Assembly: GCA_023138975.1 (NCBI GenBank)
Contig: JAGLON010000006.1
Span: forward strand, 42,999 to 106,998
Direction of reading: 5' to 3'
Length of the DNA: 64,000 nt
Source of the DNA: Candidatus Zixiibacteriota bacterium
Lineage (GTDB): Bacteria > Zixibacteria > MSB-5A5 > GN15 > JAAZOE01
A program made the translations under genes and the position numbers. The notes under the pieces were generated by a model. The model saw only the letters and a program-made list of their open reading frames with translations. It had not been told where the DNA came from and did not search any database. Each line of letters opens with the position of its first letter. Positions within the stretch are counted from its first letter, which is position 1. Positions 5,061-56,403 of the stretch are shown here, in pieces.

Positions 5061-7370
5061 ATGGCAAAAATCTCCTATCTCAGGCAACTGCAAACCCTTC
5101 TAATTGCGGTAGCAATAGGAGCCCTATCACTCACTTCCGCTATATGTGCGGACGACAGCTTTTCACCGGTTTATAATCCAACGATGAAAACCATGCCAGC
5201 GTCGAGCAAAATCAGTATCGACGGCAAGCTTGATGACGCCGGCTGGAAAAATGTCGAAAAAATCTCACAGTTTGTTGAACGTGATCCCGGCGATCAAATC
5301 AAGCCGGAAGTTCGGACTGAAGCTTTTATTACCTATGATGACAACTACATCTATGTTGGATTTATCTGTTATGATGACCCCGGTCAAATCCGGGCCACAA
5401 TGTGCCAGCGCGATAGATTCTTTGACGACGACGAAGTCGCCGTAAGTCTTGATACGTATAGTGACGCCTCGCGCGCCTATATGTTCCATGTCAATCCCTA
5501 CGGTGTACAAAAAGACGGCTTGTGGACCAGTATCAGCACCTTTGGGGTCAACTACGGAATTGATTTTATATGGAAATCGGCAGCCCAAAGAACCGAAAGA
5601 GGTTATCAGGTGGAAATCGCGATTCCATTTGCCAGTATCAGATTCCCCGATAAAGAAGAGCAATCCTGGAAAGTGGATTTGCGCCGTAAGCGCCCGCGCG
5701 AAAGCTCATACTTTTACGGCTGGGCCGCACTTGACCGCAACGAACAATGCTGGCCCTGTCAGTGGAGCACCGTTACCGGTGTGAAAAACGTCAAGCCGGG
5801 CAAAGGTATTGAAATACTGCCCACATATATCGCCTATCAGTCTGGCAGCTTTGTACAAGCAACCGATAATTTTGATAACCATGATGTTAAAGGCGAACCA
5901 TCCATCATGAGTAAGTATTCGATATCATCGGATATTACTTTTGAAGGAACTCTAAACCCTGATTTTTCCCAAATTGAGGCCGACGCCGCCCGTATCGACG
6001 TCAACTCTACCTTTGCTCTCTTCTTTCCGGAACGCCGACCGTTCTTCCAGGAAGGCAGCGACATCTTCCAGACCCTGTTTAACGCCTATTACACCAGAGC
6101 TATTCAGGATCCGAAATACGCAGTTAAATTTACAGGCAGAAAAAACCGGATGAGCTTCGGATTTGTCTCAGCCTTAGATGAAAACACTCCTTATATAATT
6201 CCTTTGGAAGACGGCAGTATTAACCTCAATGCCGGCGAAAGTTATGTGAATGTTTTTCGGGCCGCTCAGTCTTTCGGTCAGGATTCACGCTTGGGCTTTC
6301 TGCTAACCGACCGCCGGTTTAAGAAAGACGGCTATGGAACGACTGTTGCGCTTGATGGTGATATCAGACTGTCTCAAAACTATAGTATCGATGGGCAATT
6401 TGTCTATAGTTTTACCGGTGAATCTGATGACACAGCCTTTTTTATGAACACAACAACATTTGATCATGGGAAACATAATGTCGGATTTGACGGTGAATCG
6501 TATCAAGGTTACGCCTTTATCAGTCGGTTTTTACGCAGAGGCCGTCACTTCAATTTTGTTTTGGATCATGATGTTGTCGGCCCGGCCTATCGTACCGAAA
6601 CCGGTTTTGATCCGGTTAATAATCACCGGACGATAATGGCCATTTCATCCTATACCTTTTATCCGGAAAAGAGTATTTTCCAGCGCATTACCCCGCGCCT
6701 TAACAATTTCAACCGCTGGAACTGGGATGGGGCCAAAAAATTCCAGAATATTAACATAGGTGTAAACAGTCGCTTGAGATTCGCACAAACATCAATCGAT
6801 ATTGTTTATCACCACGGTCTGGAGCAGTATGCCGGTACTGAATTCAGAGATTTGGGAAGCGCTGACCTCAACATTAGTCTTCGCCCGAGCGATCAGTTCG
6901 GTTTATTCTTTGGACTACACTATGGTGAACAGATTGCCTATTCCCATATTGAGAGAGGAAATCAGTTCGGGGCTAATATTTTTGTGTCTCTGAAACCAAT
7001 CAGCCGTATTACTATCGAACCGAGTTTTAATTTTTCTGAAAACATGAAGAAAAACAACGGGGGGGAATTCTTCAGACAGATCGTAACCCGTACCCGATTA
7101 CAGCTTCAGGCTAATCGTGAATTATCACTACGGCTGGTTGTGCAGTATGTCGATACGAGAGTCCCTGATTTTGAATACATACGTAAAAGCTGGAGTATTG
7201 ATCCTCTAATCACCTATCGCCTAAGCTCATTCTCGGTGTTTTATATCGGCTCCTCAAACAACTATCAGCAATTCACCAGTGTGGATGTTAACTCCGTTAA
7301 TCCGAAAACCGATTGGAAGCTCAACAACCGGCAGTTTTTCATGAAATTGCAATATCTCTTCCAAACCTAA
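5061..7370 (+). CDS. CBM9-like / DUF5916-type secreted or outer-membrane protein
   Basis: 769 aa with a signal peptide. The N-terminal ISIDGKLDDAGWKNVEKISQFVERDPG...FITYDDNYIYVGFICYD is the CBM9/DOMON-like motif that precedes a long beta-rich DUF5916-type region. The protein ends in aromatic residues (QYLFQT). Confidence 0.6.
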   Translation: MAKISYLRQLQTLLIAVAIGALSLTSAICADDSFSPVYNPTMKTMPASSKISIDGKLDDAGWKNVEKISQFVERDPGDQIKPEVRTEAFITYDDNYIYVGFICYDDPGQIRATMCQRDRFFDDDEVAVSLDTYSDASRAYMFHVNPYGVQKDGLWTSISTFGVNYGIDFIWKSAAQRTERGYQVEIAIPFASIRFPDKEEQSWKVDLRRKRPRESSYFYGWAALDRNEQCWPCQWSTVTGVKNVKPGKGIEILPTYIAYQSGSFVQATDNFDNHDVKGEPSIMSKYSISSDITFEGTLNPDFSQIEADAARIDVNSTFALFFPERRPFFQEGSDIFQTLFNAYYTRAIQDPKYAVKFTGRKNRMSFGFVSALDENTPYIIPLEDGSINLNAGESYVNVFRAAQSFGQDSRLGFLLTDRRFKKDGYGTTVALDGDIRLSQNYSIDGQFVYSFTGESDDTAFFMNTTTFDHGKHNVGFDGESYQGYAFISRFLRRGRHFNFVLDHDVVGPAYRTETGFDPVNNHRTIMAISSYTFYPEKSIFQRITPRLNNFNRWNWDGAKKFQNINIGVNSRLRFAQTSIDIVYHHGLEQYAGTEFRDLGSADLNISLRPSDQFGLFFGLHYGEQIAYSHIERGNQFGANIFVSLKPISRITIEPSFNFSENMKKNNGGEFFRQIVTRTRLQLQANRELSLRLVVQYVDTRVPDFEYIRKSWSIDPLITYRLSSFSVFYIGSSNNYQQFTSVDVNSVNPKTDWKLNNRQFFMKLQYLFQT

Positions 7371-12592: not shown

Positions 12593-13957
12593 TTAATTTC
12601 GTTCAGCCGCTTCGCGGGCTTTTTCAAGTTCCAACTCGGCCTCGAGCGCTCTTATTTTTGCTTCTTTGGCTTTTACTTCGAGATCACGCAGATCGACTTT
12701 GTACTCGGTTTTAGAATTTCCCAGACCGTCTTTGGTCGTAACCATTTCGGCATTGGTGAATTCTCCGGGATCAGATACGAGTGTTTTAACGCTACCGTAT
12801 GAAGTCGGAAAATACATAGCCTTGATGCGGGATCGGGATGCTCTAACAGTTCCGGTACTCTGGCTGTACCGAGCTGCTTCCAACCGGAAGGTGATCGTTC
12901 TTGCAGAACTTATGTAATAGACCCGGTCAACGAACGCATGAGAGCTATTGGTCTCCGTATCATGAAAAGTGCTTTTAAATACGAATACATCCTCTCCTTC
13001 ATTTCCACCCCCTTCTGTTGTATCAATCTGGAGGTACGCTCCGCTCAAGTCTGTCGAACCGCTGAAAATGATGCTGCAATGTCCGGATACATACACATAG
13101 CCCGCTCCGGGAGTAGAAATGGTAGCTGTCGCAATATCGACAAACGAAGCGCTTGTTAAGTAAGGAGAGTCACCGGTATTGCTGACAATACCCGGCTCGT
13201 TCAAAATTTCATCAGCATCAATGGCACCCTCGGGAAAGACGACCGATGAGTTTCCGTCATCGCCTGCATCTATTTCTATCTGTTGATCATTATTGCCATC
13301 ATACAGGCGAAGCCGTCCACCGCTACTTAACCCCGCAAGGACCGCGCGTCTGCCGCCGGTAAATCCATAATACAACGCCAATTCACCGTATGAGGCACCG
13401 TAAAGGCGAACTGTGGTTGTGTCACTGCTTCTCAAATAGATATTCGCAGATGACGTGCTGACAGATATAGTACCTTCGTAATTGCCGTCACTATCACCAT
13501 CAAAAACAAGATCGTTGGTCATGGTGTCACCGATTGTGTGAACAAAATCATCTGCAGTGGCTATATATTCTGCTGTGTCAGCCTTGAGCGCCCGATACGA
13601 ATACGGCACGGCTGTGAATCTCGTACGAGGTGATATCTCGGCATCGGTGGCGACCTTGATTCCCAGCCAACGAAGCTGGTTATCAAAAATATTGTGCGGT
13701 AGCGCCGCTGTTGAACCAAGGATATAGCTGAACAATCCGTCTTTAACGTACACATCTCGTGCACCTGAAGTCCAGATAGGAGACGGAGCACCCTCGCTGG
13801 CATAGATGCCGAACGTCATATAAGTCCAACCGTCCGCTACCACATCACCGTTACTGTCTGTCAGTCGCCCCTGGTAGTTTACCAGCGGTGCAATATCAGC
13901 CCCTACGGTTGCGACCATTGCGACGAGTATTATTGCAATGGATAAAAAGCATTTCAT
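12593..13957 (-). CDS. Fibre-like secreted paralogue P4 (unknown family)
   Basis: 454 aa. GGAGG lies 4 nt upstream of the ATG, with signal peptide MKCFLSIAIILVAMVATVGA. It shares with P1-P3 the NYQGRLTD..G..VADG module, the EILNEPGI motif, the PG.GYVYVS / QIDT / TFRLEA motifs and the C-terminal coiled coil DLRDLEVKAKEAKIRALEAELELEKARE. Confidence 0.85.
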   Translation of the reverse strand: MKCFLSIAIILVAMVATVGADIAPLVNYQGRLTDSNGDVVADGWTYMTFGIYASEGAPSPIWTSGARDVYVKDGLFSYILGSTAALPHNIFDNQLRWLGIKVATDAEISPRTRFTAVPYSYRALKADTAEYIATADDFVHTIGDTMTNDLVFDGDSDGNYEGTISVSTSSANIYLRSSDTTTVRLYGASYGELALYYGFTGGRRAVLAGLSSGGRLRLYDGNNDQQIEIDAGDDGNSSVVFPEGAIDADEILNEPGIVSNTGDSPYLTSASFVDIATATISTPGAGYVYVSGHCSIIFSGSTDLSGAYLQIDTTEGGGNEGEDVFVFKSTFHDTETNSSHAFVDRVYYISSARTITFRLEAARYSQSTGTVRASRSRIKAMYFPTSYGSVKTLVSDPGEFTNAEMVTTKDGLGNSKTEYKVDLRDLEVKAKEAKIRALEAELELEKAREAAERN

Positions 13958-13984
13958 ATTTCCTCCAACATTTATATCAATCGT

Positions 13985-15355
13985 TTATTCTCGATTTCTG
14001 TTTTCGAGCATCTCTCTGGCATTATCGAGTTCAATTTGAGCCTCAAGAGCTTTTATCTTCGCTTCTTTGGCTTTCAGTTCCAGTTCACGAAGGTCGACTT
14101 CATACGCAGTATGGACGTTTCCTTCATCATCATGGCTGATCAACTTTGTGTCTGTGAATCCTAACGGATCAGATACTATTGTCTTCACCGAACCATAAGA
14201 TGTCGGAATATATAACGCTGTGATAGTAGCATTACGTATTGATATATCTCCATTAGCCATCAAAGATTTCCGTGCTTCAAGACGAAAAGTCAGTGGAGTT
14301 GAGCCGGCAACATAATACATCCGGCTCGAATAGGAAGGAAAGAAATTGTCTGCGGTTGAGGCAGAGCCATTCAATCCAGCAAGTGAATAAGCTCCGGATA
14401 CAAGACTACCGCCAGCAGTAGCATCAATTTGAATAAAACAAGAATTGTAGTCTGTCGTATTGTAAAGGCGAACAAAGTATTGTGCAGAGATAAATAAATA
14501 CCCGACCGCCGGAGGAGTAATTGTAACGGTCACGACATCCTGCATTGCTGCTGTACTGGTTATTACCACAAAATCAGATTGAGTATTAGAAGCGAATCCT
14601 ACCTCATCGAGAATTTCATCTGAGTTAATGGCATCATCGGGGAGCATGACCGACTCATCTCCATCATAACCGGAGTTGAAGATAATCTGTTTAGAGTTAT
14701 CACTATTTTTCAGCACGAATGCTCCGCCAGAATTGAAGGCAGACAGACTAACTCGGCGCAATCCATCATATGCGTCATTCAATAACAACTGGCCAAATAA
14801 TTCACCGAAGAGAAAAACGGTTGTTGTGTCATTACTTCTGAGATAGATATTCGAAGCTGTGGAGTTGGCAGCAAATCTTCCTTCATAAACTCCGTCATTA
14901 TCAGGGTCAAAGACTAATGAACCGACCATTGTATCACCGGCAGTGTGAACAAATTGATCCTCGTTAGCAACTTCATCAGCACGAAGTGCCTGATAAGCAT
15001 ACGGTACAGACTGGAGGCGTGTCCTGGGCGCTATCTCAGCATCAGATCCAACGGTTATCCCCAGATAGCGGACGGAATCCTCAAAAAGACCGTCCGGAAA
15101 TGAGGGGGAATAGCCGAGGTCGAACGTAAACAGGCCAGCGGCGACATTAACACTGCGTGACGGCGCAGTCCACAAAGGTGTACCATTCGCCTTACCCTCG
15201 TAAATGCTAAACGTCAGTTCATACGTCCCGTCAGCTACCGGTGCGCCGGTATCGTCTGTAAGACGCCCCTGATAAGGTATCGGAGACGGAATTTCTGCAA
15301 CGAGCATCGCTGTGCAGAAAAGTAAGATAATGGTCAGTGCAAGAACTGTCTTCAC
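13985..15355 (-). CDS. Fibre-like secreted paralogue P3 (unknown family)
   Basis: Start revised to GTG 15355 (GGAGG-aaact-GTG), giving MKTVLALTIILLFCTAMLVAE; 456 aa. Architecture matches P4. The C-terminus reads YEVDLRELELKAKEAKIKALEAQIELDNARE. Confidence 0.85.
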   Translation of the reverse strand: MKTVLALTIILLFCTAMLVAEIPSPIPYQGRLTDDTGAPVADGTYELTFSIYEGKANGTPLWTAPSRSVNVAAGLFTFDLGYSPSFPDGLFEDSVRYLGITVGSDAEIAPRTRLQSVPYAYQALRADEVANEDQFVHTAGDTMVGSLVFDPDNDGVYEGRFAANSTASNIYLRSNDTTTVFLFGELFGQLLLNDAYDGLRRVSLSAFNSGGAFVLKNSDNSKQIIFNSGYDGDESVMLPDDAINSDEILDEVGFASNTQSDFVVITSTAAMQDVVTVTITPPAVGYLFISAQYFVRLYNTTDYNSCFIQIDATAGGSLVSGAYSLAGLNGSASTADNFFPSYSSRMYYVAGSTPLTFRLEARKSLMANGDISIRNATITALYIPTSYGSVKTIVSDPLGFTDTKLISHDDEGNVHTAYEVDLRELELKAKEAKIKALEAQIELDNAREMLENRNRE

Positions 15356-15396
15356 AGTTTCCTCCAGTAGTTTAGCCCCCAACTTGGAGTAATAAT

Positions 15397-16593
15397 TTAT
15401 TCAGAATCTCTCTTAGCTCGTTCTAATTCGCGTTCAGCTTCGAGTTGTTCGATATATGCTTTCTGAGATGCTATTTTCGCTTCCTTGGCTTTCAGTTCCA
15501 GCTCCCGCAGGTCAACTTCGTAGGCTGTAGTTGTATGGCCATCTTTGTCAGTAGTTTGAATTTGAATTGGAATGGCATCCTTAAAGCCGTTCGGGTCCGT
15601 AGTTATGGATTTAACGGGAGCGTAACTGGTTGGGAAGAACATTACGGTAATTTTAGGATATTCAATACTTACAGATCCTGTAGCTGACGAATGCTTCATC
15701 GCTTCCAGATGATAGGTTCGCTCAGATGAATCATTTACGAAGTATATCTGATCTGTACTACTTGTGAAATAGTAATAACCATCATCTGGGAAGGCGGATT
15801 GGTTAATATAAGCACAATTTGGAAATTTCGTCCTACCGCCTTCAAGTGTATCAATCTGGAAATATACGCCGTTCAATCCCATTGTGTTATATAACGCAAC
15901 TTGAAACTTCGCAGAAACGTAAACGTAACCGGGACCAGGCGGTTTAATAGTAATTGAGTGGACATTTTCCATTTCGGTAGTACTACTAATTCCATCAACG
16001 AGATTGTATGAAGTTCTGTCAATACCCGGCTCGTTGAGAATTTGTTCAGAGCTGACTTGTTCAACATATGCGGCAGTGTCGGCATGCGTTGCTTGTTCAG
16101 CATACCCGGTATAATCTGCTGAGTCAGCCCTTAGTGATTGATAGGCATACCCGGCATAATCCGTTGAGTCAGCCCTTAGTGATTGATAGGCATACCCTGC
16201 ATAATCTGCTGAGTCAGCTCTTAGTGATTGATAAGCATACGGTACAGAGTGAAGGCGAGTTCGGGGTGATATTTCCGCATCAGAACCTACCGTAATTCCC
16301 AGATAGCGGACGGAATCCTCGAAAAGACCTTCGGGAAATGAGGGGGAATAGCCGAGATCGAATGTAAACAACCCACCATTAACATAGACATTGCGTGACG
16401 GGGCAGTCCATAAAGGTGTACCATTCGCCTTACCTTCGTAAATACTAAACGTTAGTTCGTAACTGCCATCGGCTACCGGAACACCGGTATCATCAGTCAA
16501 CCTCCCCTGATACGTTATAGATGACGGTACTTCGGCAACAAGTATCGTCGTGCAAAAAAGTAGTATTATTGTCAAAGCCAGTGCAGTCTTCAC
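15397..16593 (-). CDS. Fibre-like secreted paralogue P2, a short form with a 15-aa tandem repeat replacing the stalk
   Basis: Start revised to GTG 16593 (GGGAGG-taagt-GTG), giving MKTALALTIILLFCTTILVAE; 398 aa. The N-terminal ~125 aa are very similar to P3. It then carries a tandem run of the 15-aa unit Y(A/T)GYAYQSLRADS(A/T)D and passes directly into the EQILNEPGI and head region. Confidence 0.85.
   Translation of the reverse strand: MKTALALTIILLFCTTILVAEVPSSITYQGRLTDDTGVPVADGSYELTFSIYEGKANGTPLWTAPSRNVYVNGGLFTFDLGYSPSFPEGLFEDSVRYLGITVGSDAEISPRTRLHSVPYAYQSLRADSADYAGYAYQSLRADSTDYAGYAYQSLRADSADYTGYAEQATHADTAAYVEQVSSEQILNEPGIDRTSYNLVDGISSTTEMENVHSITIKPPGPGYVYVSAKFQVALYNTMGLNGVYFQIDTLEGGRTKFPNCAYINQSAFPDDGYYYFTSSTDQIYFVNDSSERTYHLEAMKHSSATGSVSIEYPKITVMFFPTSYAPVKSITTDPNGFKDAIPIQIQTTDKDGHTTTAYEVDLRELELKAKEAKIASQKAYIEQLEAERELERAKRDSE
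16101..16235. repeat. 45 bp x3 in-frame tandem repeat inside P2
   Basis: Units at 16101-16145, 16146-16190 and 16191-16235 (catacccggtataatctgctgagtcagcccttagtgattgatagg and two variants differing by a few substitutions). The next 5 nt restart the unit. Confidence 0.9.
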
Positions 16594-16635
16594 ACTTACC
16601 TCCCATGATATTGCCCCCAATATCTAAAAAGTTTA

Positions 16636-18021
16636 TTATTCCAGTTGTTCTTTTGCCTCTTTCAATTCCAGCTCCGCCTCCAGCCGCCGGATTCGTGCAG
16701 CCTGTTCTTCTATCTTCGCCTGCTTAGCAATAAGCTCGAGATCCTTGATTGAGGTATTCTCTGCTGTAACTTTCTCTGACGAATTTGCAGTTGATATTAT
16801 ATTGGATTCCATAACATCAGGTAATGGTTGAGAGACACCGCTTGGAATTGAACCATATGCAGTTGAAAAATATATACAGCTTATCTGATTGTCATTTGTA
16901 TAAACGTTTGAATAGTTTGACCAATTTGCACCTTCTAGCTGGAATATATATGTTCCCGCCGTTGCGAAATAGTAGGTTCTGAATACTGTCACCGGAGTCA
17001 TTTCGCTAAATCGTGTAGCATCCATAGCATTAAGAGTTTTCATAGAGTAGTTGGATCCTGCGCCACCTGCTGTATCGATCTGAATTACACCTTGCATCAT
17101 ATCTGTTGAGTCCGTGGGCATATCGATTCCCACGGAACATCCGCCGATAACAAACACATATCCGGGGGCAGGTATAGTCATAGTGTCGGCCGCCAAAGTT
17201 GAGAATGAGAATGTTAGAGGATACTTAGTGAGTCCATCCTCGGATGAGGTTATACCCGGCTCGTTGAATATCTCTGTTGAACTAATTGACCCGGTTGGAA
17301 GAATCGCCGCACTATCGCCAGTGAGTTCAGCATCAAAGACGACTTTGTCTGTACCAGTATTATCTCTTAGTCGAATCGATCCGCCTTTGTTATATCTGGC
17401 ATTCAAAAAAACCGTATTGATGCCGCCATCGTCTGACAGTATCAGCGAACCGTATCCCTGGCCATATAGTGCTGCCTTGCGAGAGCCTTCGTTATAAAGA
17501 AAGATATTAGAGAAAGTTTCACCGACTTGAATTTGACCGTCCATACCGTTACCCGCTCCATCAAAAACTAGACTGCCCGACAAAGTATCTCCAGTCTTCT
17601 CGACAAAATTCCCGGGTGCGGTCAACACAAACTCGGCCGTATCGGCTTTTCGAGCATGGAAAGCATAGGCGTTTGAAGTAAGTCTCGTTCGGGGTGATAT
17701 CTCAGAGTCTGTACCTACGGTAATACCAAGATAACGTTCAGGACCGTAAAACAGGTCAGATGAAAACGGTACATTTGACCCCAATGGATAAGTAAACAAA
17801 CCATCAGCAGCAGTAACAGTCTGTCCACCGGATGACCATATGGTGTCAGTGCCTGATTCACTTCCATAGATGTGGAAGTAAAGAGTATAATTACCATCGG
17901 CTACCGGACTGCCCGAATCATCGGACAACCGCCCCTGATAGTTCATCATCTGAGGTATTTCTGCTACAGCACTCATGACAAATACAGTTAACACTCCAAC
18001 TAATAGTATCATTACTTTCAT
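16636..18021 (-). CDS. Fibre-like secreted paralogue P1 (first gene of the operon, most divergent)
   Basis: 461 aa. GGAGG lies 6 nt upstream of the ATG, with signal peptide MKVMILLVGVLTVFVMSAVA. The same module order is kept: NYQGRLSDDSGSPVADG, TEIFNEPGI, PAPGYVFV, IQIDT, FQLEG and the coiled-coil tail DLELIAKQAKIEEQAARIRRLEAELELKEAKE. Confidence 0.85.
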   Translation of the reverse strand: MKVMILLVGVLTVFVMSAVAEIPQMMNYQGRLSDDSGSPVADGNYTLYFHIYGSESGTDTIWSSGGQTVTAADGLFTYPLGSNVPFSSDLFYGPERYLGITVGTDSEISPRTRLTSNAYAFHARKADTAEFVLTAPGNFVEKTGDTLSGSLVFDGAGNGMDGQIQVGETFSNIFLYNEGSRKAALYGQGYGSLILSDDGGINTVFLNARYNKGGSIRLRDNTGTDKVVFDAELTGDSAAILPTGSISSTEIFNEPGITSSEDGLTKYPLTFSFSTLAADTMTIPAPGYVFVIGGCSVGIDMPTDSTDMMQGVIQIDTAGGAGSNYSMKTLNAMDATRFSEMTPVTVFRTYYFATAGTYIFQLEGANWSNYSNVYTNDNQISCIYFSTAYGSIPSGVSQPLPDVMESNIISTANSSEKVTAENTSIKDLELIAKQAKIEEQAARIRRLEAELELKEAKEQLE

Positions 18022-36310: not shown

Positions 36311-37807
36311 CTATTCTTCCTTTTGAGATCTCATCTGCGGGAAGAACAGCACATCCTGTATCGAATGCTGATTGGTGCACAGCATTACAATCCGGTCAAC
36401 GCCAATCCCCAACCCTCCGGTCGGCGGCATGCCGTACATTAAAGCATTAATAAAATCATGATCAAGCTGATGCGCCTCTTCGTCACCCGCCTCGGCGACT
36501 TTACCCTGATCAATAAATCTCTGTTTCTGATCCAGAGGGTCATTGAGTTCGGAGAAGGCATTACCCAATTCCATCCCGCATGCAAACAATTCATACCGCT
36601 CGGCCAGATTCGGATTATCCCGGTGCACTTTGGCTAACGGCGAAATATCCTTAGGATGATCGATAATAAACGTCGGCTGCTGCAGTGTCGGCTCAACTAA
36701 CTCATCAAAAAACGCCTCAACAATTTTACCGTGATTCAACATCTTCGCTTTATCGAAATTGGCATCCTTGGCCAACTTTAAAGCTTTATCAAAATCGAAA
36801 TCAGACAGATCCGGCCCGCCGTTTTCCTTGACGGCATCAATCATCGATATCCGCTTGAACGGTTCGCCGAACTCGATCTTCTCACCTTCGTATTCGAGAA
36901 AAGAATTCCCGGAGACTTCTTTAATCGTATGGCGCAGTAAATCTTCGTACAGGTCCATCATGTCGTGATAATCGGCGAAAGCCTGATACAGTTCAATCAT
37001 AGTAAATTCGGGATTGTGCTTGCGGTCGAGTCCCTCGTTGCGAAAATCTTTACACATCTCCCACACTTTATCATAACCGCCGACGATGAGGCGTTTGAGG
37101 TACAGCTCATCGGCAATACGCAGATACAAATCCATATCTAGCTTGCGGTGATGCGTCACAAACGGAACCGCGATACCTCCGCCGTAGAGCGGTTGTAACA
37201 CCGGAGTTTCGACTTCCATGAATCCACGATCGTTTAGGAAATTTCGGATCGCCTGCAAAACTTTGGAACGAGTCTTGAATACGTCCCGCACCTCCTGATT
37301 GACGATTAGGTCAACATAACGTTGACGATAGCGGGTTTCCTTGTCGGTTAAACCGTGCCATTTTTCCGGCAGCGGATGGAGTGACTTGGTCAGAATTTCA
37401 AACTCCTCAATCTTGACCGTCTGTTCTCCGGTCCGGGTGGTAAACATCGTTCCCTTCATGCCAATGAAATCGCCCATATCCAGTAGAAGGAACTGTTCCC
37501 ACAGCTCATCGCCAATCACATTCTTTTTCATATAGCATTGCAGGCGTCCCCATTCGTCCATAAAATGCAAAAAGGCCGCCTTGCCCATTTTGCGAATAGC
37601 CATTATTCGTCCAGCCGTCTGGATTGGTGTTTCCTTTTCGGCTAATTCATCGTAACCGTCGAGCAGCTGCTTGGTATTGTGTGTGACGTTATATGTATAG
37701 GGATAAGGGTTTATTCCCATTTCCCGCAATTTGTTCAGTTTTTCAATCCGTCCTTCGATGACTTGGTTCACAGGAACAGTTGGTTCTTGAGGCTTTTCGT
37801 CGCTCAT
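36311..37807 (-). CDS. lysS: Lysine--tRNA ligase, class II
   Basis: 498 aa with an N-terminal OB anticodon-binding domain and class II motifs (FMEVETPVLQ, ...ELGNAFSELNDP..., GMPPTGGLGIGVDRIVM). Confidence 0.95.
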   Translation of the reverse strand: MSDEKPQEPTVPVNQVIEGRIEKLNKLREMGINPYPYTYNVTHNTKQLLDGYDELAEKETPIQTAGRIMAIRKMGKAAFLHFMDEWGRLQCYMKKNVIGDELWEQFLLLDMGDFIGMKGTMFTTRTGEQTVKIEEFEILTKSLHPLPEKWHGLTDKETRYRQRYVDLIVNQEVRDVFKTRSKVLQAIRNFLNDRGFMEVETPVLQPLYGGGIAVPFVTHHRKLDMDLYLRIADELYLKRLIVGGYDKVWEMCKDFRNEGLDRKHNPEFTMIELYQAFADYHDMMDLYEDLLRHTIKEVSGNSFLEYEGEKIEFGEPFKRISMIDAVKENGGPDLSDFDFDKALKLAKDANFDKAKMLNHGKIVEAFFDELVEPTLQQPTFIIDHPKDISPLAKVHRDNPNLAERYELFACGMELGNAFSELNDPLDQKQRFIDQGKVAEAGDEEAHQLDHDFINALMYGMPPTGGLGIGVDRIVMLCTNQHSIQDVLFFPQMRSQKEE

Positions 37808-38420: not shown

Positions 38421-39653
38421 TTGAATAATACAATATTTTATTCTTGGCAGTCAGACTTGCCTAATGATTCAAATCGTGGATTTATTGAATCTTGCTTAAA
38501 GAAGGCATCCAAGAAAATATCAAATATTAGCCCTTTTTCGATTGATTTTGTTTTAGATAGAGATACAAAAAATGAAACGGGTACACCTGACATTGCAAAT
38601 TCCATTTTTAAGAAGATCTCAAAAGCAAAAATATTTGTCGCTGACATTTCAATCATTAATAGTGACTATAATGGACGGAAAAGTCCTAATCCAAATGTTC
38701 TGCTTGAATTAGGGTATGCTTCTCGAATTTTGGGCTGGGAAAAAATCTTCTGTTTTTACAATCTTGATTATGGTAACTATGATGATTTACCATTTGATCT
38801 TAAACAAAAAAGGCCTATTACTTACAGTTTGAATGGTGAGGTTAAAAGTGATGTTCGAGAAGAATTATCAAAAATTGTAGCTGAATCTATATTGATATTG
38901 CACAATGCAGGAAGTCTATTTAATGTGGTAGATGATTATGTGAAAGAAAAAATAGATACTGAACTATTAACAATCTCAAATCATTTAAGTAAAATATTAC
39001 TAGGATATTCTGAAAAATCTCTACTTGAGAGAACAGGAATTTTATTAGATTTATCTGATGAGGGTATTGCTGGACACCTCTATCATAAAAAATCAATAGG
39101 TTTTCAAATATTCAAAAATTTTAACATTCATGAGAAAAATTTAAGAGACATTGCAGATAAAATGATATCCTCTGTTCATCAAAATAAGGAGTTAGCTGTT
39201 CCTATTATTGAAATAATAAGTTGGATTGGTCGATATGATAAAATTAACTCCTCCAGAAGTGAATTTAAGTTCTTCGCTCCATTAAAATCTAAGAACCCGT
39301 CTTACAATGCTGTTAATAGTCAATCTCTTATCCCAAGAAATGATGATTTACCGGATAGATATATTTTATTTGAAAGGCTTTCTGAAAAACCAGGAAGAGT
39401 AATTGATTTTGGTGATATTATCGAAAGAGATAAAATTAATCAGTTAACGAATGAATTTATTTTTAAGCAGGAGCATACAAAAACTTACGTTTCATTATTT
39501 CGGGATTTTATCAAGAACATTAGAAAATGGCTTGACTTGACAAATGGCGAATTTATTCTTGATACTTATCATAATTTTGAAATGAAAACAAAGGGAATTC
39601 CAAAAAAAGGGCATCTAAATAGGCCGGGTGGTCCACCGCCCGTGGAGGAATAA
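38421..39653 (+). CDS. Orphan protein with an N-terminal TIR-like (Cap12/PycTIR-type, nucleoside-deoxyribosyltransferase-like) domain and an unknown helical C-terminal domain
   Basis: 410 aa with a TTG start. IFYSWQSDLP...(~60 aa)...AKIFVADISIIN...SPNPNVLLELGYASRILGWEKIFCFYN...DDLPFDLKQKRPITY fits the remembered TIR-like pattern (R/N.NV..ElGy...lG..r......lPsDl). GC is about 30% by hand count, against the mid-40s in the flanks. Repeat clusters sit on both sides. Confidence 0.5.
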   Translation: MNNTIFYSWQSDLPNDSNRGFIESCLKKASKKISNISPFSIDFVLDRDTKNETGTPDIANSIFKKISKAKIFVADISIINSDYNGRKSPNPNVLLELGYASRILGWEKIFCFYNLDYGNYDDLPFDLKQKRPITYSLNGEVKSDVREELSKIVAESILILHNAGSLFNVVDDYVKEKIDTELLTISNHLSKILLGYSEKSLLERTGILLDLSDEGIAGHLYHKKSIGFQIFKNFNIHEKNLRDIADKMISSVHQNKELAVPIIEIISWIGRYDKINSSRSEFKFFAPLKSKNPSYNAVNSQSLIPRNDDLPDRYILFERLSEKPGRVIDFGDIIERDKINQLTNEFIFKQEHTKTYVSLFRDFIKNIRKWLDLTNGEFILDTYHNFEMKTKGIPKKGHLNRPGGPPPVEE

Positions 39654-41335: not shown

Positions 41336-41522
41336 TTTACTCAGCTTTTGCAAGATTCCTTTTTAATAGGCAAATAGTATTATGGGCAAGGGAGTATTTA
41401 CTGAAGGGCATGACATCAGGTTCAAGAAAACAAACACAACAATGCTAAGCCCCTGTCTGAAATGGAAGCTCAGGCGGGGGATTTGCTCTTTTATTTCTCG
41501 TATCTCATTGTCTAAAAATAGT

Positions 41523-41551
41523 TTGACTTTTCTGCAATTGTTTCGTATTAT
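41523..41551 (+). promoter_or_regulatory. Candidate sigma-70 promoter for the 41663/42019 operon
   Basis: TTGACT (41523-41528), a 17 nt spacer, then TATTAT (41546-41551), about 110 nt upstream of the ATG. Confidence 0.45.
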
Positions 41552-41662
41552 ATATATACGAGGGGAATTTTCCTCACCCCACCTCTCTTAATCATAACCT
41601 CACCGCATCCGCAAGGGATAAAAATGTTTAATAATATATAATCCTTAACAAGGAGTGGTGTT

Positions 41663-42016
41663 ATGTTTCGTAAAACTGTAACCATGATGTTACTCGTTAT
41701 GTTCCTATTAACGATAACCGGTCCGGTCACCGGACACAACGGAGTAATCATAATTCCCAATACTCTTGATCCCGGTGGGGAAGAACATCCTTGGGGCGGC
41801 GGCCAGCACGCTATCATTGATCCGCTGGCAGACGATATTTACGCCACTAACTCAGTACCTCGATTCTCAACAAACTTCTTTGTTGATTTTGCACTTCAGA
41901 GAGTATGGATTTCAGCGACGAGCACCATTCGTAGAATAGTCTTTCCGAACAACTCTGATAAGTTGAATTCAGTGAACGCAAATCAGTCAACGATTAAAGA
42001 CGTGAGGAATCGGTAA
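41663..42016 (+). CDS. Small secreted hypothetical protein
   Basis: AAGGAG lies 7 nt upstream, with signal peptide MFRKTVTMMLLVMFLLTITGPVTG. Its stop is 2 nt before the activator gene. Confidence 0.55.
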   Translation: MFRKTVTMMLLVMFLLTITGPVTGHNGVIIIPNTLDPGGEEHPWGGGQHAIIDPLADDIYATNSVPRFSTNFFVDFALQRVWISATSTIRRIVFPNNSDKLNSVNANQSTIKDVRNR

Positions 42017-42018
42017 TT

Positions 42019-44274
42019 ATGGGAAAATTAACGCTAAAGAACCCAGATATCCGCGCTGAATTGAATCGTCAATTGACGAATGCGATTCAGTTAAGTGATA
42101 TCGCCAGCGGTATGCGGCTGGTCGAAAAGACTGGTAGTATGATGACCGAATACGGCGATACACTGGCGGGCGAATATCGGTGTCTTGAAGCTAAACTGTT
42201 TTTCCTTTCCAATGATTACCGCCTGGCCCTCACTTCTGCCCGTCTCGCAACGGCAATATTGGCTCAGTTCGGTGAAACCGAACAGCTCGCCGAAGCGTTT
42301 TTGCTCACGGGTAAATCGTTGTCCGCGCTTGGTAATTATAAAGAGGCAGAAACGGCTTATCTCGATGCCGAGTCTCTCTATCGCAGAAATGACAATATTG
42401 GTGGACGTATTGATACCGTCAATCAACTGGCTCGGATATTTTTCATCCGCGCCGAATATAAAAGCGCCTTAAAGTACCTGCTCGAAGCAGCCAATTTGGC
42501 AGAGCAAATTGACGACCGCAAAACCCTGGCCTTCCTATGGGGTAACCTCGGTCGCGTCTATACCTTTATGGGCAACTTCGATAAAGCAATCAAAACGCTC
42601 AAGCTCAACATCAGTGTGTCTGATGAACTGGGCGACAAGCAGGAAAAAGCCCGGGCATTGTTGTCGCTGGGTTATATTGAAATGCAGTCTGAGTATTACG
42701 AAAAAGCCCAGAAACATTTTGATGAAGCCTATATTGATTTGGTTCGTGAAAAAATGAACCGTTCTATCATTATCTGCCAAACTTACCTTGGTGAGCTTAA
42801 GCTCAAGAGCGGAGAGCTTTCGGCCGCTCGCAGGTACTTGGACGAAGCCATTGATGGCGCCCGCCGTCTGGCTCCTAAATCATCGCTAATGGTGGCGCCT
42901 CTGCGTCTCCTGGCTGAATTAGAGTTGGCTGATAAGCAATATAATTCAGCTTCGCGATTGGCTAACAAGGCGCTGGCTCTGGCTGAAGAGATCAACGAGC
43001 CGGTCGAAAAAGGTGCAATTCTTCGGCTGCAGGCTAAATTGGCCATTGCTGTTTTCGCAGACGACACCAAACCCAAACAGGCTCGCAAACTGTTTGGTCT
43101 CGCGATGGAGCTTTTTTATGAAGTCGACGCTCGGTATGAGCAGGCGGAAACTCTGATCGCTATGGCCGATTGCGGTCTTGGTTCAGCCCGCCGACAGATG
43201 GCAAATCTGTTTCGGGCCGCTGATCAGTACAAGCGCCTCGGCATATCCTCAAAATACGAAAAAACGCAAGAGCTCATTAACCGTACCGACATTAAAATCG
43301 CCGGAAAGAACCCCCACCCGATACGCCAGAGTTCTCAGGGGCCGACGATTATCACTAACAATCCTCGCATGACCACAATTCTCGATCAATTGTCTCATGC
43401 GTCCCAGTCGGATTTGCCGGTACTGTTAATGGGCGAAACCGGCACCGGTAAGGATTTATTGGCCTTGTATTACCATAACAAGAGCGGCCGCAAGGGCGAC
43501 TTTGTAGCAGTCAACTGCGCCGCCTTCCCGGATACGCTCCTTGAATCAGAATTGTTCGGTTATCGAAAAGGCGCCTTTACCGGGGCCGAAACCGATAAGG
43601 ACGGTCTTTTGCATCGAGCTAATGGCGGTACTTTTTTCCTCGATGAAATAGGTGAAATGTCGCTGATCTCGCAGGCAAAACTACTGACCGTAATTGAAAC
43701 TTGCCGCACCCGGCGACTGGGCGATACGTCCGATGAAGCCCTCAATATCAGGTTTATTGCAGCGACTAACGGCGAGCTGTCAAAAATGGTTGAGGCGGGG
43801 ACGTTCCGAAGGGATCTTTATTATCGCCTAAGCGGAATAACTTTTACGATTCCGCCCCTATCACAGCGCCCGGAGGATATCCCCTTGCTTCTCCAGCATT
43901 TCTTGATAAAAGAAGGAGTTGAGGTGGTTGATAAAAGCCTCGACCCGGAATTGGTCTCAGAATTCACTTCCCGTTCATGGCCCGGAAATGTTCGCCAATT
44001 GGAATCGGAAGTGAAAAAACTAGTTCTGTTTTCTACAATCGCCAAGGAGGACTCGTTAAGTGATTTGGCTGGAGTCCTGGTTCAAAATGACACCGACAGC
44101 GATACGTTGTCTTTGGTGAACCAAGTTGAGCAATTTGAGAAGGGACTCATCATCAAGGCGCTTCGTCGGGCTGACGGTAACAAATCAAAGGCGGCTCGAA
44201 CCCTTGCTATTCACGAATCGACCCTAAGGGCGAAAATGAAACGCTATGATTTAACACTTTCTGCCGCTTCGTAA
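42019..44274 (+). CDS. Sigma-54-dependent transcriptional activator with an N-terminal TPR-rich sensor region (no receiver domain)
   Basis: The first ~430 aa are TPR-like helical repeats. The AAA+ core carries Walker A LLMGETGTGKDLLA, the GAFTGA loop (YRKGAFTGAETDKDG) and ESELFGY. The C-terminal Fis-type HTH reads NKSKAARTLAIHESTLRAKMKRY. Confidence 0.9.
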   Translation: MGKLTLKNPDIRAELNRQLTNAIQLSDIASGMRLVEKTGSMMTEYGDTLAGEYRCLEAKLFFLSNDYRLALTSARLATAILAQFGETEQLAEAFLLTGKSLSALGNYKEAETAYLDAESLYRRNDNIGGRIDTVNQLARIFFIRAEYKSALKYLLEAANLAEQIDDRKTLAFLWGNLGRVYTFMGNFDKAIKTLKLNISVSDELGDKQEKARALLSLGYIEMQSEYYEKAQKHFDEAYIDLVREKMNRSIIICQTYLGELKLKSGELSAARRYLDEAIDGARRLAPKSSLMVAPLRLLAELELADKQYNSASRLANKALALAEEINEPVEKGAILRLQAKLAIAVFADDTKPKQARKLFGLAMELFYEVDARYEQAETLIAMADCGLGSARRQMANLFRAADQYKRLGISSKYEKTQELINRTDIKIAGKNPHPIRQSSQGPTIITNNPRMTTILDQLSHASQSDLPVLLMGETGTGKDLLALYYHNKSGRKGDFVAVNCAAFPDTLLESELFGYRKGAFTGAETDKDGLLHRANGGTFFLDEIGEMSLISQAKLLTVIETCRTRRLGDTSDEALNIRFIAATNGELSKMVEAGTFRRDLYYRLSGITFTIPPLSQRPEDIPLLLQHFLIKEGVEVVDKSLDPELVSEFTSRSWPGNVRQLESEVKKLVLFSTIAKEDSLSDLAGVLVQNDTDSDTLSLVNQVEQFEKGLIIKALRRADGNKSKAARTLAIHESTLRAKMKRYDLTLSAAS

Positions 44275-44308
44275 GTTTTTACGAACCGGCGCATATTCTG
44301 TGGTTTGT

Positions 44309-44347
44309 GATAAGCGCATGAGAATCATGCGCTTATCTTTTTTTGCT
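44309..44347 (+). terminator. Rho-independent terminator of the activator operon
   Basis: Perfect 13 bp stem gataagcgcatga / tcatgcgcttatc with a 3 nt loop, followed by a T-run. Confidence 0.85.
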
Positions 44348-44460
44348 TATTCCCTTCGTACTGCCTCACGAAAACCGAAGCCGCCAATCAAATCACCCAA
44401 ACGATTTTATCATATTGTATCATAATCACTTACACAGTTTTTTACTTGTTCGCACACTTA

Positions 44461-44476
44461 AGGCACAGCCATTGCT
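44461..44476 (+). promoter_or_regulatory. Sigma-54 (-24/-12) promoter-like motif
   Basis: aGGCACagccaTTGCt compared with the consensus TGGCACG-N4-TTGCW. GG (44462-44463) and GC (44474-44475) are separated by exactly 10 nt. Confidence 0.45.
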
Positions 44477-44486
44477 ATATGTATTA

Positions 44487-44575
44487 GTGTCATTTAAAGC
44501 TCCTTTTGCGCTGCTTTAATAGTCCTTTTTTCTCGGATGGCCGCCCGTACGCGAGGGGTGTACGGGGGGCTTTTT
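44487..44575 (+). ncRNA. Candidate ~90 nt sigma-54-dependent sRNA or terminated leader
   Basis: The predicted start is about 12 nt after the -12 element. There is a hairpin ttaaagc/gctttaa (44494-44519), then a GC-rich hairpin cccgtac-gcgaggggt-gtacggg (44544-44566) followed by gggcTTTTT. The next ATG with an ORF is at 44662. Confidence 0.3.
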
Positions 44576-44661
44576 ATATTTAAAAAATTTATTAGAAACT
44601 TCACACACTATCCAGCGTAAAAGCATTGTACAAATAACTAAAACCCGTTATTCTTATTAGC

Positions 44662-45189
44662 ATGAAAAAGCAGATTTATTTTACACTATGTTTTATAATA
44701 CTAATCGCTTTGGCTGTCCCGAGTCTATCAAGCGATAAAAAATTATCCCTAAAGAGTACCTTTAATCTATTATCGTTCGAAGGTGAATGGACCGGCTACG
44801 GCGAGGCTATTATTCCCCGGGTAAGAATTCCTATCTCCATCGAAGGCAAGGCAACTTTTGCTTACGACTCTATCGCCAATTTTCTCCGGACATCAATAGA
44901 AGCAAGAAAGTTCCTCTTTACGTACATCGATTCCGGGCATTTGTATCACAATCCTGAAACTGATTCTATTGTTTGGGAAGTCTGGGATGGGTTCGGTGAA
45001 TATGGCATCTATAACGGTTTAGTCACTGATACGCTTTTGACCGGAACATTGAGGAAAGATAACTACCTGTTTCATATTAATATCGATTTTGTCACAGCCG
45101 ATAGTATGGTCTTTTATATGACTGCACAAAAGGGCTTTGAGGGTAAGGAAAAACCTCAGGCTACAATTAGTTTATGGCGCAATAAATAA
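44662..45189 (+). CDS. Secreted hypothetical protein
   Basis: 175 aa with signal peptide MKKQIYFTLCFIILIALAVPSLSS. No family recognised. Confidence 0.6.
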   Translation: MKKQIYFTLCFIILIALAVPSLSSDKKLSLKSTFNLLSFEGEWTGYGEAIIPRVRIPISIEGKATFAYDSIANFLRTSIEARKFLFTYIDSGHLYHNPETDSIVWEVWDGFGEYGIYNGLVTDTLLTGTLRKDNYLFHINIDFVTADSMVFYMTAQKGFEGKEKPQATISLWRNK

Positions 45190-45229
45190 CTTTTCTATTT
45201 CATTTCGGTTTTAATTTCATTTGTACCTT

Positions 45230-45787
45230 ATGCCAAAATATTCTATATATATCCCCATGGATAACTATAATAAAAAACGCCGTGAAATGTTGGAAGCTAT
45301 GCCGAAAGATATGCTTATCGGCATGCTGGAAGACGCCGCCAAAAACTGGCTGGCACACGATGGTTTATGGTTTCAGGCTGTTGAAGCCGGTCACGATATG
45401 AAAACAGCTATTGACCACGATACCACCGCCTGGAAACGTTTTACCGTTATCGAAGCCAAACGGATTATGAAGCGACATGGAATCGGGCCGGACTCCGGTC
45501 TCGCCGGATTGAAAAAGGCTCTGGGATTTCGACTCTATGCCCATTTGAATATTCAGGAAATTATCGCAGAAACTGAAAATAGTCTGGTCTTTCGCATGAA
45601 TGACTGCCGGGTACAATCTGCCCGAAATCGGGCTGGACTGCCGGACTTTCCCTGCAAGTCAGTCGGTTTGGTAGAATATGAGCTATTTGCCACGACAATT
45701 GATCCTCGAATAAAAACCGAATGTCTCAGTTGCCCTCCGGATAAGCATCCGGTGGAATACTACTGCGCCTGGAAATTTTCGATTTAA
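45230..45787 (+). CDS. Conserved hypothetical protein (possibly DUF6125-like)
   Basis: NWLAHDGLWFQAVE...TAWKRFTVIEAKRIMKRHG resembles a family I recall as DUF6125. The start is ambiguous (TTG 45221, ATG 45230 or ATG 45257). Confidence 0.5.
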   Translation: MPKYSIYIPMDNYNKKRREMLEAMPKDMLIGMLEDAAKNWLAHDGLWFQAVEAGHDMKTAIDHDTTAWKRFTVIEAKRIMKRHGIGPDSGLAGLKKALGFRLYAHLNIQEIIAETENSLVFRMNDCRVQSARNRAGLPDFPCKSVGLVEYELFATTIDPRIKTECLSCPPDKHPVEYYCAWKFSI

Positions 45788-55253: not shown

Positions 55254-56156
55254 CTAATATAACCGCTCCCTCTTTGCCAAAAAGGCGTACAACGCTTTAT
55301 CGAACGGCGTCGAGGTATCTATCATATGATAATCGGCGCGAGCCTGACGGCATTCGGCCGAGATCTTACTCGTCACCGCCTCAAACTGTTTCTGATAATC
55401 TTTCTTTATCTGCCACGGCAGAGTCGTGATTTTCTCGCCCGTTTCCATATCTTCAAAAATAGCCTCTCCGCCGAAAGCAAAATCCCGTTCGCGAGGATCC
55501 AGCACATGAAAGACGATAACCTCGTGATTGCGATGCCGGAAATGCTTGATACCGGAAATGATCTTATCCGGATCATCGAATAAATCTGAAATAATAATGA
55601 CCAGTCCCCGGCGTTTGATTCTCTCTGCCATTTCATGCAGAGGTACAGCGATATCGGTTGTCGATTCGGTCGTCAGGTCGGAAAAATGTTTTAATAATTG
55701 ATGCATATGCCCTGAAGCTGACCGGGGTGGTATATATTGATTTATCTTGTCGGCAAACGTCACCAGTCCGACAGCGTCACGCTGTTTTATCATCAGATAC
55801 GACAGTGAGGCAGCCAGCGTCAGAGCATAGTCAAACTTATTCTGGCGATTTTTATCCGATGAATACCCCATCGAGGCGGAACAATCCAACAACAGATACG
55901 CCTTGAGGTTGGTTTCCTCCTCGTACTGTTTGATATAAAACCGGTCGGACTTGGCGTAAACTTTCCAGTCGATATCCCGGATAGAATCGCCCGGCATATA
56001 CTGACGATGTTCGGCAAACTCGACCGAGAAACCGTGATATGGCGACTTGTGCATCCCGGCAATGAATCCTTCGACGACCATCCGCGCCTTGAGTTCCATG
56101 CCTTTGAGTTTTGACACAGTATCGGGACTTAAATATTTTCTATAATCTGTTGGCAT
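55254..56156 (-). CDS. DUF58 (vWA-like) protein, the usual MoxR partner
   Basis: HRQYMPGDSIRDIDWKVYAKSDRFYIKQYEEE is the DUF58 signature, followed by a vWA-like LLLDCSASM. Confidence 0.85.
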   Translation of the reverse strand: MPTDYRKYLSPDTVSKLKGMELKARMVVEGFIAGMHKSPYHGFSVEFAEHRQYMPGDSIRDIDWKVYAKSDRFYIKQYEEETNLKAYLLLDCSASMGYSSDKNRQNKFDYALTLAASLSYLMIKQRDAVGLVTFADKINQYIPPRSASGHMHQLLKHFSDLTTESTTDIAVPLHEMAERIKRRGLVIIISDLFDDPDKIISGIKHFRHRNHEVIVFHVLDPRERDFAFGGEAIFEDMETGEKITTLPWQIKKDYQKQFEAVTSKISAECRQARADYHMIDTSTPFDKALYAFLAKRERLY

Positions 56157-56224: not shown

Positions 56225-56327
56225 GTCATTCCCGAGAACGAAGTGAGTCGGGAATCCAGAACAGAGACAGATCAATCGCTGCACTGGATTCCCGCAACGA
56301 CCCTGCCGGGTCCTGCGCGGGAATGAC
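56225..56327. repeat. Two adjacent GGGAAT-type hairpin modules
   Basis: gtcattcccgagaacgaagtgagtcgggaatccag (56225-56259) and ctggattcccgcaacgaccctgccgggtcctgcgcgggaatgac (56284-56327). Confidence 0.75.
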
Positions 56328-56403
56328 GATGACTAATAATATAGTCGACATGGGTCAATAGTAGGTTCTTCCTCCGGTCCGAGCTTCATCCCCGAAACAG
56401 GGT

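Follow-up and report, generated by a model that had tools for sequence, protein, structure and literature searches.

Sigma-54 activator genes that lie beside a dedicated small RNA (sRNA) gene are already known from other bacteria. The gene glmY of Enterobacteria, which depends on sigma-54 and GlrR, is found beside the glrK–glrR operon with tandem activator sites upstream of it, and encodes a protein-decoy RNA of about 150–180 nucleotides (nt). CrcZ of Pseudomonas is an RNA of about 400 nt with repeated A-rich motifs that sequesters Hfq/Crc, and its activator CbrB is a two-component response regulator. In Vibrio, qrr1 adjoins luxO, and the 5′ region of the Qrr RNAs is conserved and single-stranded. 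The gene crcZ is located directly 3′ of cbrB and has an RpoN-dependent promoter that is activated by CbrB (PMC10562864; PMC6296734), and Qrr1–5 are sRNAs of about 100 nt that end at intrinsic terminators and depend on sigma-54 and LuxO (bioRxiv 10.1101/2021.07.01.450815; PMC3730234). The target of the regulator DVU0679 in Desulfovibrio vulgaris is Dv_sRNA2, which is encoded 3′ of the regulator's own gene; the binding motif is conserved in orthologous loci (PMC3333781), and the sigma-54 regulome of this species includes four non-coding RNAs (PMC4641369). Here we describe a predicted sRNA gene at positions 44461–44575 of a 64-kb stretch (the window) of a metagenome-assembled genome (MAG) from Zixibacteria, an uncultured phylum of the FCB group, in which the putative promoter, RNA and terminator follow the gene of a TPR-type sigma-54 activator.

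Like crcZ, the predicted RNA gene lies immediately 3′ of the gene for a sigma-54 activator; unlike CrcZ, the RNA would be only about 89 nt long and is CU-rich, its candidate activator has a TPR sensor region and no receiver domain, and the two RNAs show no relation in sequence or in Rfam. With LuxO–Qrr the locus would share a sigma-54-dependent sRNA with one dedicated activator and an intrinsic terminator, but the Qrr RNAs are multi-copy and LuxO is a response regulator, whereas the RNA described here is single-copy in the genomes checked, is encoded co-directionally 3′ of its activator gene and has no Qrr match in Rfam. The placement of the RNA gene 3′ of the activator gene, as a putative target of that activator, is also that of DVU0679–Dv_sRNA2. 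That pair belongs to another phylum, its regulator is of the response-regulator type, and the Rfam library revealed no sequence similarity between the RNAs. GlrR (QseF)–GlmY likewise combines a sigma-54 sRNA gene near its regulator genes with tandem upstream sites, yet glmY lies upstream of its regulators, its product is a decoy and no Rfam match to it was found here. A feature of the Zixibacteria system is the pairing of the activator with a small signal-peptide protein that carries an invariant HPWGG motif.

We favour a stand-alone sRNA gene that depends on sigma-54 and on the adjacent activator, and put the probability of this reading, which is drawn from sequence comparison, at about 0.8. 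An earlier reading of the window from its letters alone (the sequence-only reading) had offered two explanations for 44461–44575: an sRNA of about 90 nt, or a terminator/antiterminator leader controlling 44662–45787. We compared 11 distinct orthologous loci, comprising the window and ten relatives from Zixibacteria-type MAGs and metagenomes (L002, L003, L004, L088, L089, L090, L091, L093, L094 and L095; L092 is identical to L091), whose activators are 38–75% identical. A further locus, L096, which encodes a paralogue of the TPR-type activator with 33% identity, was included for comparison. A metagenome scan with the activator alignment relied on back-translated patterns in the generic AAA+ domain and returned only unrelated activators of about 40% identity (L008–L087); these 80 loci served as negative controls for the covariance model only.

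The predicted −24/−12 element, aGGCACagccaTTGCt (44461–44476, + strand), was recognized by its match to the sigma-54 consensus and by its conservation. Its GG (44462–44463) and GC (44474–44475) are exactly 10 nt apart, as the sequence-only reading had it, and it begins 117 nt past the T-run of the activator terminator, in good agreement with the earlier figure of about 115 nt. That reading had also counted 14 of 16 consensus positions; our own count is 10 of the 12 specified positions of TGGCACG-N4-TTGCW. The strict core GGCAC-N5-TTGC occurs a single time on both strands of the 64 kb, where base composition gives an estimate of about 0.3. Conservation of the motif in orthologous intergenic regions had been named as a check, and GGCAY-N5-TTGCT occupies the corresponding position in ten of the 11 loci, 186–366 nt 3′ of the activator stop codon across the set, while its surroundings vary: the N5 spacers are all different (agcca, ggtca, aggca, aaacc, agctc, acagc, acctc, acggc, gggcc, aacga and agtga), and the 10–13 nt that follow TTGCT (−11 to −1) are also variable. 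Judged by this pattern of conservation, the motif very probably is a genuine sigma-54 promoter.

Conservation resumes at the predicted transcript. Counting 12 nt on from the C of the −12 GC gives the predicted +1, and no more than about 2 nt away from that base starts a near-invariant block, (G)UGUCAUUUwUAGCUCCUUUUGCGCUGCUUUArUAGUCCUUUUUUCUCGG. In the eight main-group loci, this RNA block is 79–96% identical to the window, compared with 70–76% for the last 900 nt of the activator gene, which is the most conserved part of that gene, and 55–69% for the flanks; the DNA before the promoter and after the U-run aligns no better than background. On the basis of the predicted +1, this conservation and a covariance model, we place an sRNA of about 89 nt at 44487–44575 (+ strand), with predicted transcript lengths of 89–128 nt across the loci. 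It would consist of a single-stranded 5′ end, GUGUCAUUU, a segment CUCCUUUUGCGCUGC and a CU-rich tract, GUCCUUUUUUCUCGG, followed by the terminator. Folded from 44487, the RNA reaches −33.9 kcal/mol (z = −3.3 relative to shuffles) and forms a 7-bp hairpin and a strong terminator, between which a CU-rich stretch stays open. The 7-bp hairpin (ttaaagc/gctttaa, 44494–44500 and 44513–44519) that the sequence-only reading had pointed out exists, but in the window only: at its position the relatives read UUUUUAGC or UUUAUAGC and keep an AGC/GCU mini-stem of 3–4 pairs.

The GC-rich hairpin with T5 that had been proposed as the end of the transcript was recovered at 44539–44575 (+ strand) as an intrinsic terminator with a GC-rich stem, a GAGGGG loop and U5, predicted from folding and from covariation. 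A covariation analysis, which had been suggested for the putative RNA, combined RNAalifold with pair counting and found compensatory double changes in six of the 11 pairs of the terminator helix, with 96% of cells paired. None of 500 shuffles equalled the observed values, and sliding the 3′ partners by 1–3 columns reduced pairing to 30–57%. The GAGGGG loop is nearly invariant; together with the CU-rich tract it is the most conserved feature in all clades, the distant loci L093–L095 included. Its role might be to mask the CUCC motif, to take part in a pseudoknot or to bind a partner. Near-invariance of both the CU tract and the terminator loop leaves no covariation by which to judge a pseudoknot between them.

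Upstream of the promoter, two 18-bp palindromes of the form TTCGTA-N6-TACGAA bracket the activator terminator. Predicted site 1, TTCGTAagttttTACGAA (44268–44285), is a perfect palindrome with no mismatch to this pattern; it overlaps the activator stop codon and lies 194 bp 5′ of the −24 GG. Predicted site 2, TTCGTActgcctCACGAA (44355–44372), matches the palindrome with one mismatch; it lies 107 bp 5′ of the −24 GG, and 87 bp separate it from site 1. The sequence-only reading had suggested looking for conserved inverted repeats in this region and had named the adjacent TPR activator as the regulator. Both suggestions fared well: every one of the 11 loci has a counterpart of site 2 at −106 to −119, and ten have one of site 1 at −192 to −208 (in L091, only the proximal site falls within two mismatches), with 86–93 bp between the two. 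Elsewhere in the 8–10-kb loci there are no other matches with up to two mismatches, and the 64-kb window holds one further two-mismatch match, which is at chance level. Tandem palindromes 100–200 bp 5′ of a −24/−12 element are the textbook layout for the sites of enhancer-binding proteins. From adjacency and co-conservation we infer that the palindromes are bound by this activator, which is thus a candidate regulator of the sRNA promoter.

The conserved DNA elements, the terminator covariation and the linkage of RNA and activator come from the sequence comparison; for the steps of activation we draw on sigma-54 biology. In the mechanism that we propose, the Fis-type HTH domain of the activator would bind the palindromes at 44268–44285 and 44355–44372, about 195 and 108 bp 5′ of the promoter. 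The AAA+ domain would oligomerize, its GAFTGA loop would contact the closed sigma-54 complex at GGCAC-N5-TTGC, and ATP hydrolysis by the activator would open the promoter. Transcription would begin near 44487 and stop at the intrinsic terminator at 44539–44575 to give an RNA of about 89 nt. Less certainly, this RNA would work in trans by base-pairing.

Several results weigh against a sigma-54-dependent sRNA gene. The loose sigma-54 consensus (up to two mismatches) has six matches in the window against 6.9 expected, which is chance level, so the motif in isolation is weak evidence and takes its weight from conservation. L091 (identical to L092) reads AGCAC, with AG in place of the canonical GG at −24. 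No rpoN was found among the open reading frames (ORFs) of the 64-kb window; we infer its presence in the host genome from the conserved activator. Alignment folding gave no well-supported conserved structure for the 5′ half of the RNA. Scans of the whole window for targets by exact-complement k-mers stayed at background, as did duplex energies against the start regions of conserved neighbouring genes in the 11 loci.

The chance rate of the loose consensus is also what would be expected of a motif that arose by accident in ordinary intergenic DNA with no dedicated transcript. We give this explanation virtually no credence, because the promoter, two palindromes, block and covarying terminator are kept in 11 loci whose flanks have diverged to background. 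The leader proposed in the sequence-only reading has more in its favour. In such an arrangement, the sigma-54 promoter would drive 44662–45787, and the RNA with its terminator would be a conditional attenuator or riboswitch. The RNA is co-oriented with the next gene in ten of the 11 loci, ending 34–104 nt before it; in the window, the next ORF (175 amino acids (aa), 44662–45189) starts 86 nt past the sRNA T-run, essentially the distance of about 85 nt noted before. Once the 3′ half of the terminator is omitted, pairing becomes possible between the conserved CUCCUUUUGCG and the terminator loop with the stem top, CG(C/U)GAGGGG, and loop conservation such as that of GAGGGG is unusual for a plain terminator. 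In folds computed with this 3′ half removed, the best structures pair CUCCUUUU(GCG) with the GAGGGG loop. This alternative is weak, however: across the eight main-group loci, the truncated whole RNA folds at −10 to −16 kcal/mol, compared with −20.5 to −26 kcal/mol when the terminator hairpin is folded by itself. The 5′ half of the terminator stem has no upstream complement to its base, which stays unpaired and would not be sequestered. Nor is there a constant gene to control, since the downstream neighbour comes in four arrangements: an ORF of 170–208 aa followed by DUF6125 in most loci, DUF6125 directly in L090, a bacterial microcompartment (BMC) shell gene in L093 and L094, and an opposite-strand ORF in L095. 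Promoter, RNA and terminator are kept in every one of them. The RNA is thus linked to the activator and not to the downstream gene, a pattern that speaks against a leader or attenuator, and the DNA past the terminator is not conserved. The downstream gene also appears to have a promoter-like element of its own at its ATG in the four closest loci. In the window this is a sigma-70-like match, TTGTAC-N17-TATTCT (44626–44654, + strand), 7 nt before the ATG of the 175-aa ORF, and the form TTGTAn-N17-TAnnnT, common to the window, L002, L003 and L004, stops 6–8 nt short of the downstream ATG; both are pattern matches only. The 175-aa ORF has no Shine–Dalgarno sequence, which, with the promoter-like element, suggests a separate and possibly leaderless transcription unit. 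No riboswitch or leader family of Rfam matches the RNA. That complementarity between the RNA and the start regions of neighbouring genes stays at background in every locus likewise favours an independent sRNA gene. On this balance, we consider a leader quite unlikely and that half of the sequence-only reading not supported; the other half, an RNA of about 90 nt, agrees with a conserved block that runs from the predicted +1 to a covarying terminator and is retained next to the activator.

A transcript of its own could still encode a peptide or act on a protein. A leaderless micro-ORF would give a GUG- or AUG-initiated peptide of 10 aa, MSF(K/L/I)APFALL, either as the product or from a dual-function RNA. 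A GTG-initiated frame of ten codons does open at the predicted +1 in three loci (the window, L002 and L003) and 2 nt past it in L088; L090 has the same frame with ATG one nucleotide after the predicted +1, and all five share the stop. Against this, L004 and L089 each carry an inserted T that displaces or lengthens the frame; in L091 the frame runs on without a stop at that point, in L093 its first codon is CTG, and L095 is without the segment. In addition, eight of the nine codons after the start are invariant, third positions included, and the sole variable codon changes the residue (K/L/I), although the flanking protein is only 60–75% identical. The absence of synonymous variation, and a stretch past the stop that is equally conserved, indicate constraint on the RNA and not on a peptide, and we regard the micro-ORF as very improbable. 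A trans-acting RNA that titrates a protein or the ribosome would keep the same gene structure and would differ in its mode of action, with the GAGGGG loop as a possible Shine–Dalgarno mimic and the CU tracts as a possible protein-binding platform, by analogy with the sequestration of Hfq by CrcZ. The gene crcZ occupies the same genomic position, directly 3′ of its activator gene cbrB (PMC10562864). The GAGGGG loop and the CU-rich tract are the parts most conserved across all clades, and no messenger RNA (mRNA) target was detectable nearby, in the window and neighbouring genes, both of which would suit titration. The predicted RNA is short, however, with single motifs in place of the repeated motifs typical of sequestering RNAs, and its layout, in which a U-rich tract and a terminator follow a single-stranded 5′ end, is that typical of base-pairing sRNAs. 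We know of no candidate binding protein for the predicted sRNA, and titration seems to us an improbable mode of action.

For the stand-alone sRNA gene, we assign about three quarters of its probability to a base-pairing mode of action. The CU-rich tracts CUCCUUUU and CCUUUUUUCUC resemble the anti-Shine–Dalgarno end of 16S ribosomal RNA (rRNA). These CU-rich motifs, combined with the layout of single-stranded 5′ end, U-rich tract, terminator and U-tail, point to ribosome-binding regions as targets. To judge from these features, the RNA probably pairs, through its conserved 5′ segment and its CU-rich tracts, with mRNAs from other parts of the genome at their purine-rich ribosome-binding regions. 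Long-window duplex folding returned only uninformative, long and imperfect duplexes. Feedback on the activator operon was considered and rejected: on inspection, the complementarity to the start region of the small ORF upstream of the activator amounted to the generic Shine–Dalgarno sequence AAGGAG only.

The RNA is outside all described Rfam families. At gathering thresholds, Rfam 15 gave no match in the window or in the ten orthologous loci, and a permissive search (E values up to 10) produced chance-level hits only, such as MicC with 19 bits against a threshold of 90 and RyhB with 16 against 55. We built a covariance model, R1, from the 11 distinct sequences; it scores these training sequences at 60–107 bits, as expected for a training set, and has no other match in the rest of the window plus the 80 unrelated activator loci (596 kb in total). 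In a genome collection with one genome per species (185,579 species), a 20-mer of the RNA occurred once in each of two Zixibacteria genomes, both already part of the comparison; a further 20-mer match (L007) was discarded as a chance match inside a cyanobacterial coding sequence. A weak R1 match at L002 3255–3356 (+ strand; E = 0.046) was not taken as a homologue. It comprises a CU-rich tract (CUCUUUUUCUCCUG) and a strong terminator 5′ of the activator operon, and may belong to some unrelated small transcript or terminate the preceding gene. Among the papers listed in literature searches, none named both Zixibacteria and sigma-54 or rpoN, and we found no earlier description of the RNA.

The activator gene itself (42019–44274, + strand; 751 aa) was assigned from Pfam domains and orthologues, and the upstream gene is, as the sequence-only reading had proposed, that of a TPR-type sigma-54 activator. 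Its product has an N-terminal TPR/MalT-like region (TPR_12), an AAA+ Sigma54_activat domain (PF00158, E = 1.5e-60) and a C-terminal Fis-type HTH (HTH_8), a domain set that makes it a sigma-54 enhancer-binding protein. The GAFTGA motif (G518 to A523) is invariant in an alignment of 32 activator orthologues. About 50 full-length orthologues from Zixibacteria MAGs are 59–75% identical to it, another group is 38–43% identical and distant TPR-type activators are about 33% identical.

Directly 5′ of the activator gene, the ORF listing contains a small ORF (41663–42016, + strand; 117 aa) with a signal peptide, whose stop is 2 nt before the activator start codon in the window and which has no match to a Pfam family. 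Its assignment rests also on its counterparts, which are found directly 5′ of the activator in all 11 loci (114–136 aa) and in the paralogue locus L096; across the window, L002–L004 and L088–L096, the sizes are 105–136 aa. In the protein alignment, an E-HPWGG motif is invariant, with H42, P43, W44 and G45 among its residues. The small secreted HPWGG protein could be a sensory partner of the activator or an anti-activator. The two genes appear to share a conserved promoter of the sigma-70 type within 41515–41662 (+ strand), aaaaa-N4-TTGACn-N17-TATnAT, and a TTCGTA half-site overlaps its −10 in the three closest loci. The leader of this operon, of about 115 nt, contains a GAGGGGA hairpin and C-rich tracts (CCTCACCCCACCTCTCTT). 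At the other end, a predicted terminator at 44309–44344 (+ strand) comprises a hairpin at 44309–44337, with a 13-bp stem GATAAGCGCATG..CATGCGCTTATC, and T7, midway between the two predicted activator sites. This stem is identical in six loci despite differing loops, and other stems elsewhere keep a (G)GTAAG..CTTAC(C) core; given its central position, the stem may also be a binding site at the DNA level.

In the paralogue locus L096, the activator is followed by a gene-free region of 1.2 kb (5403–6631), in which R1 found no sRNA homologue and we saw no clear sigma-54 promoter. A variant repeat, TTCGCA-N6-GACGAA, occurs in this locus at 6258 and also 5′ of its small ORF at 2359, and a degenerate TGCAT-N5-TTGCT is present at about 6475, ahead of a 425-aa ORF.

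The predicted module of activator, binding sites, sigma-54 promoter, sRNA and terminator occurs in a phylum without cultured representatives. It would extend the arrangement of a sigma-54 activator gene beside a dedicated sRNA beyond Proteobacteria, to Zixibacteria of the FCB group, with an activator that would sense through a TPR region and not a receiver domain. We regard the system as solid and useful and not conceptually surprising. The covariance model could seed an Rfam family and so improve the annotation of Zixibacteria MAGs, and the TTCGTA-N6-TACGAA pattern allows genome-wide prediction of the activator regulon. A more far-reaching idea is that the HPWGG protein, the TPR-type activator and the single sRNA make up a previously undescribed signalling pathway of Zixibacteria and related FCB-group lineages, in which the sRNA reprogrammes translation broadly. 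We consider this unlikely. If it were true, an extracytoplasmic or protein–protein cue would be relayed to one sRNA without a two-component phosphorelay, and the sRNA, with its anti-Shine–Dalgarno-like tracts and Shine–Dalgarno-like loop, would for example compete with 16S rRNA for ribosome-binding sites and not act on a few specific targets.

Three other regions of the window were recorded in passing. A second sigma-54-like motif, GGCAG-N5-TTGC at 56307–56294 (− strand), 5′ of a 300-aa ORF (55254–56156, − strand), was rejected as a promoter as it sits inside palindromic repeats; the surrounding segment, 56240–56330, contains the palindromes TTCCCGC..GCGGGAA and TTCCCGA..TCGGGAA and looks like a repeat or terminator element. 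At 38421–39653 (+ strand), between lysS (36311–37807, − strand) and the activator region, lies a 410-aa ORF without a Pfam match and without a counterpart in the orthologous loci examined. Four consecutive ORFs of 454, 465, 407 and 461 aa at 12593–18021 (− strand), which have no Pfam match at E ≤ 1e-5, may be a paralogous array.

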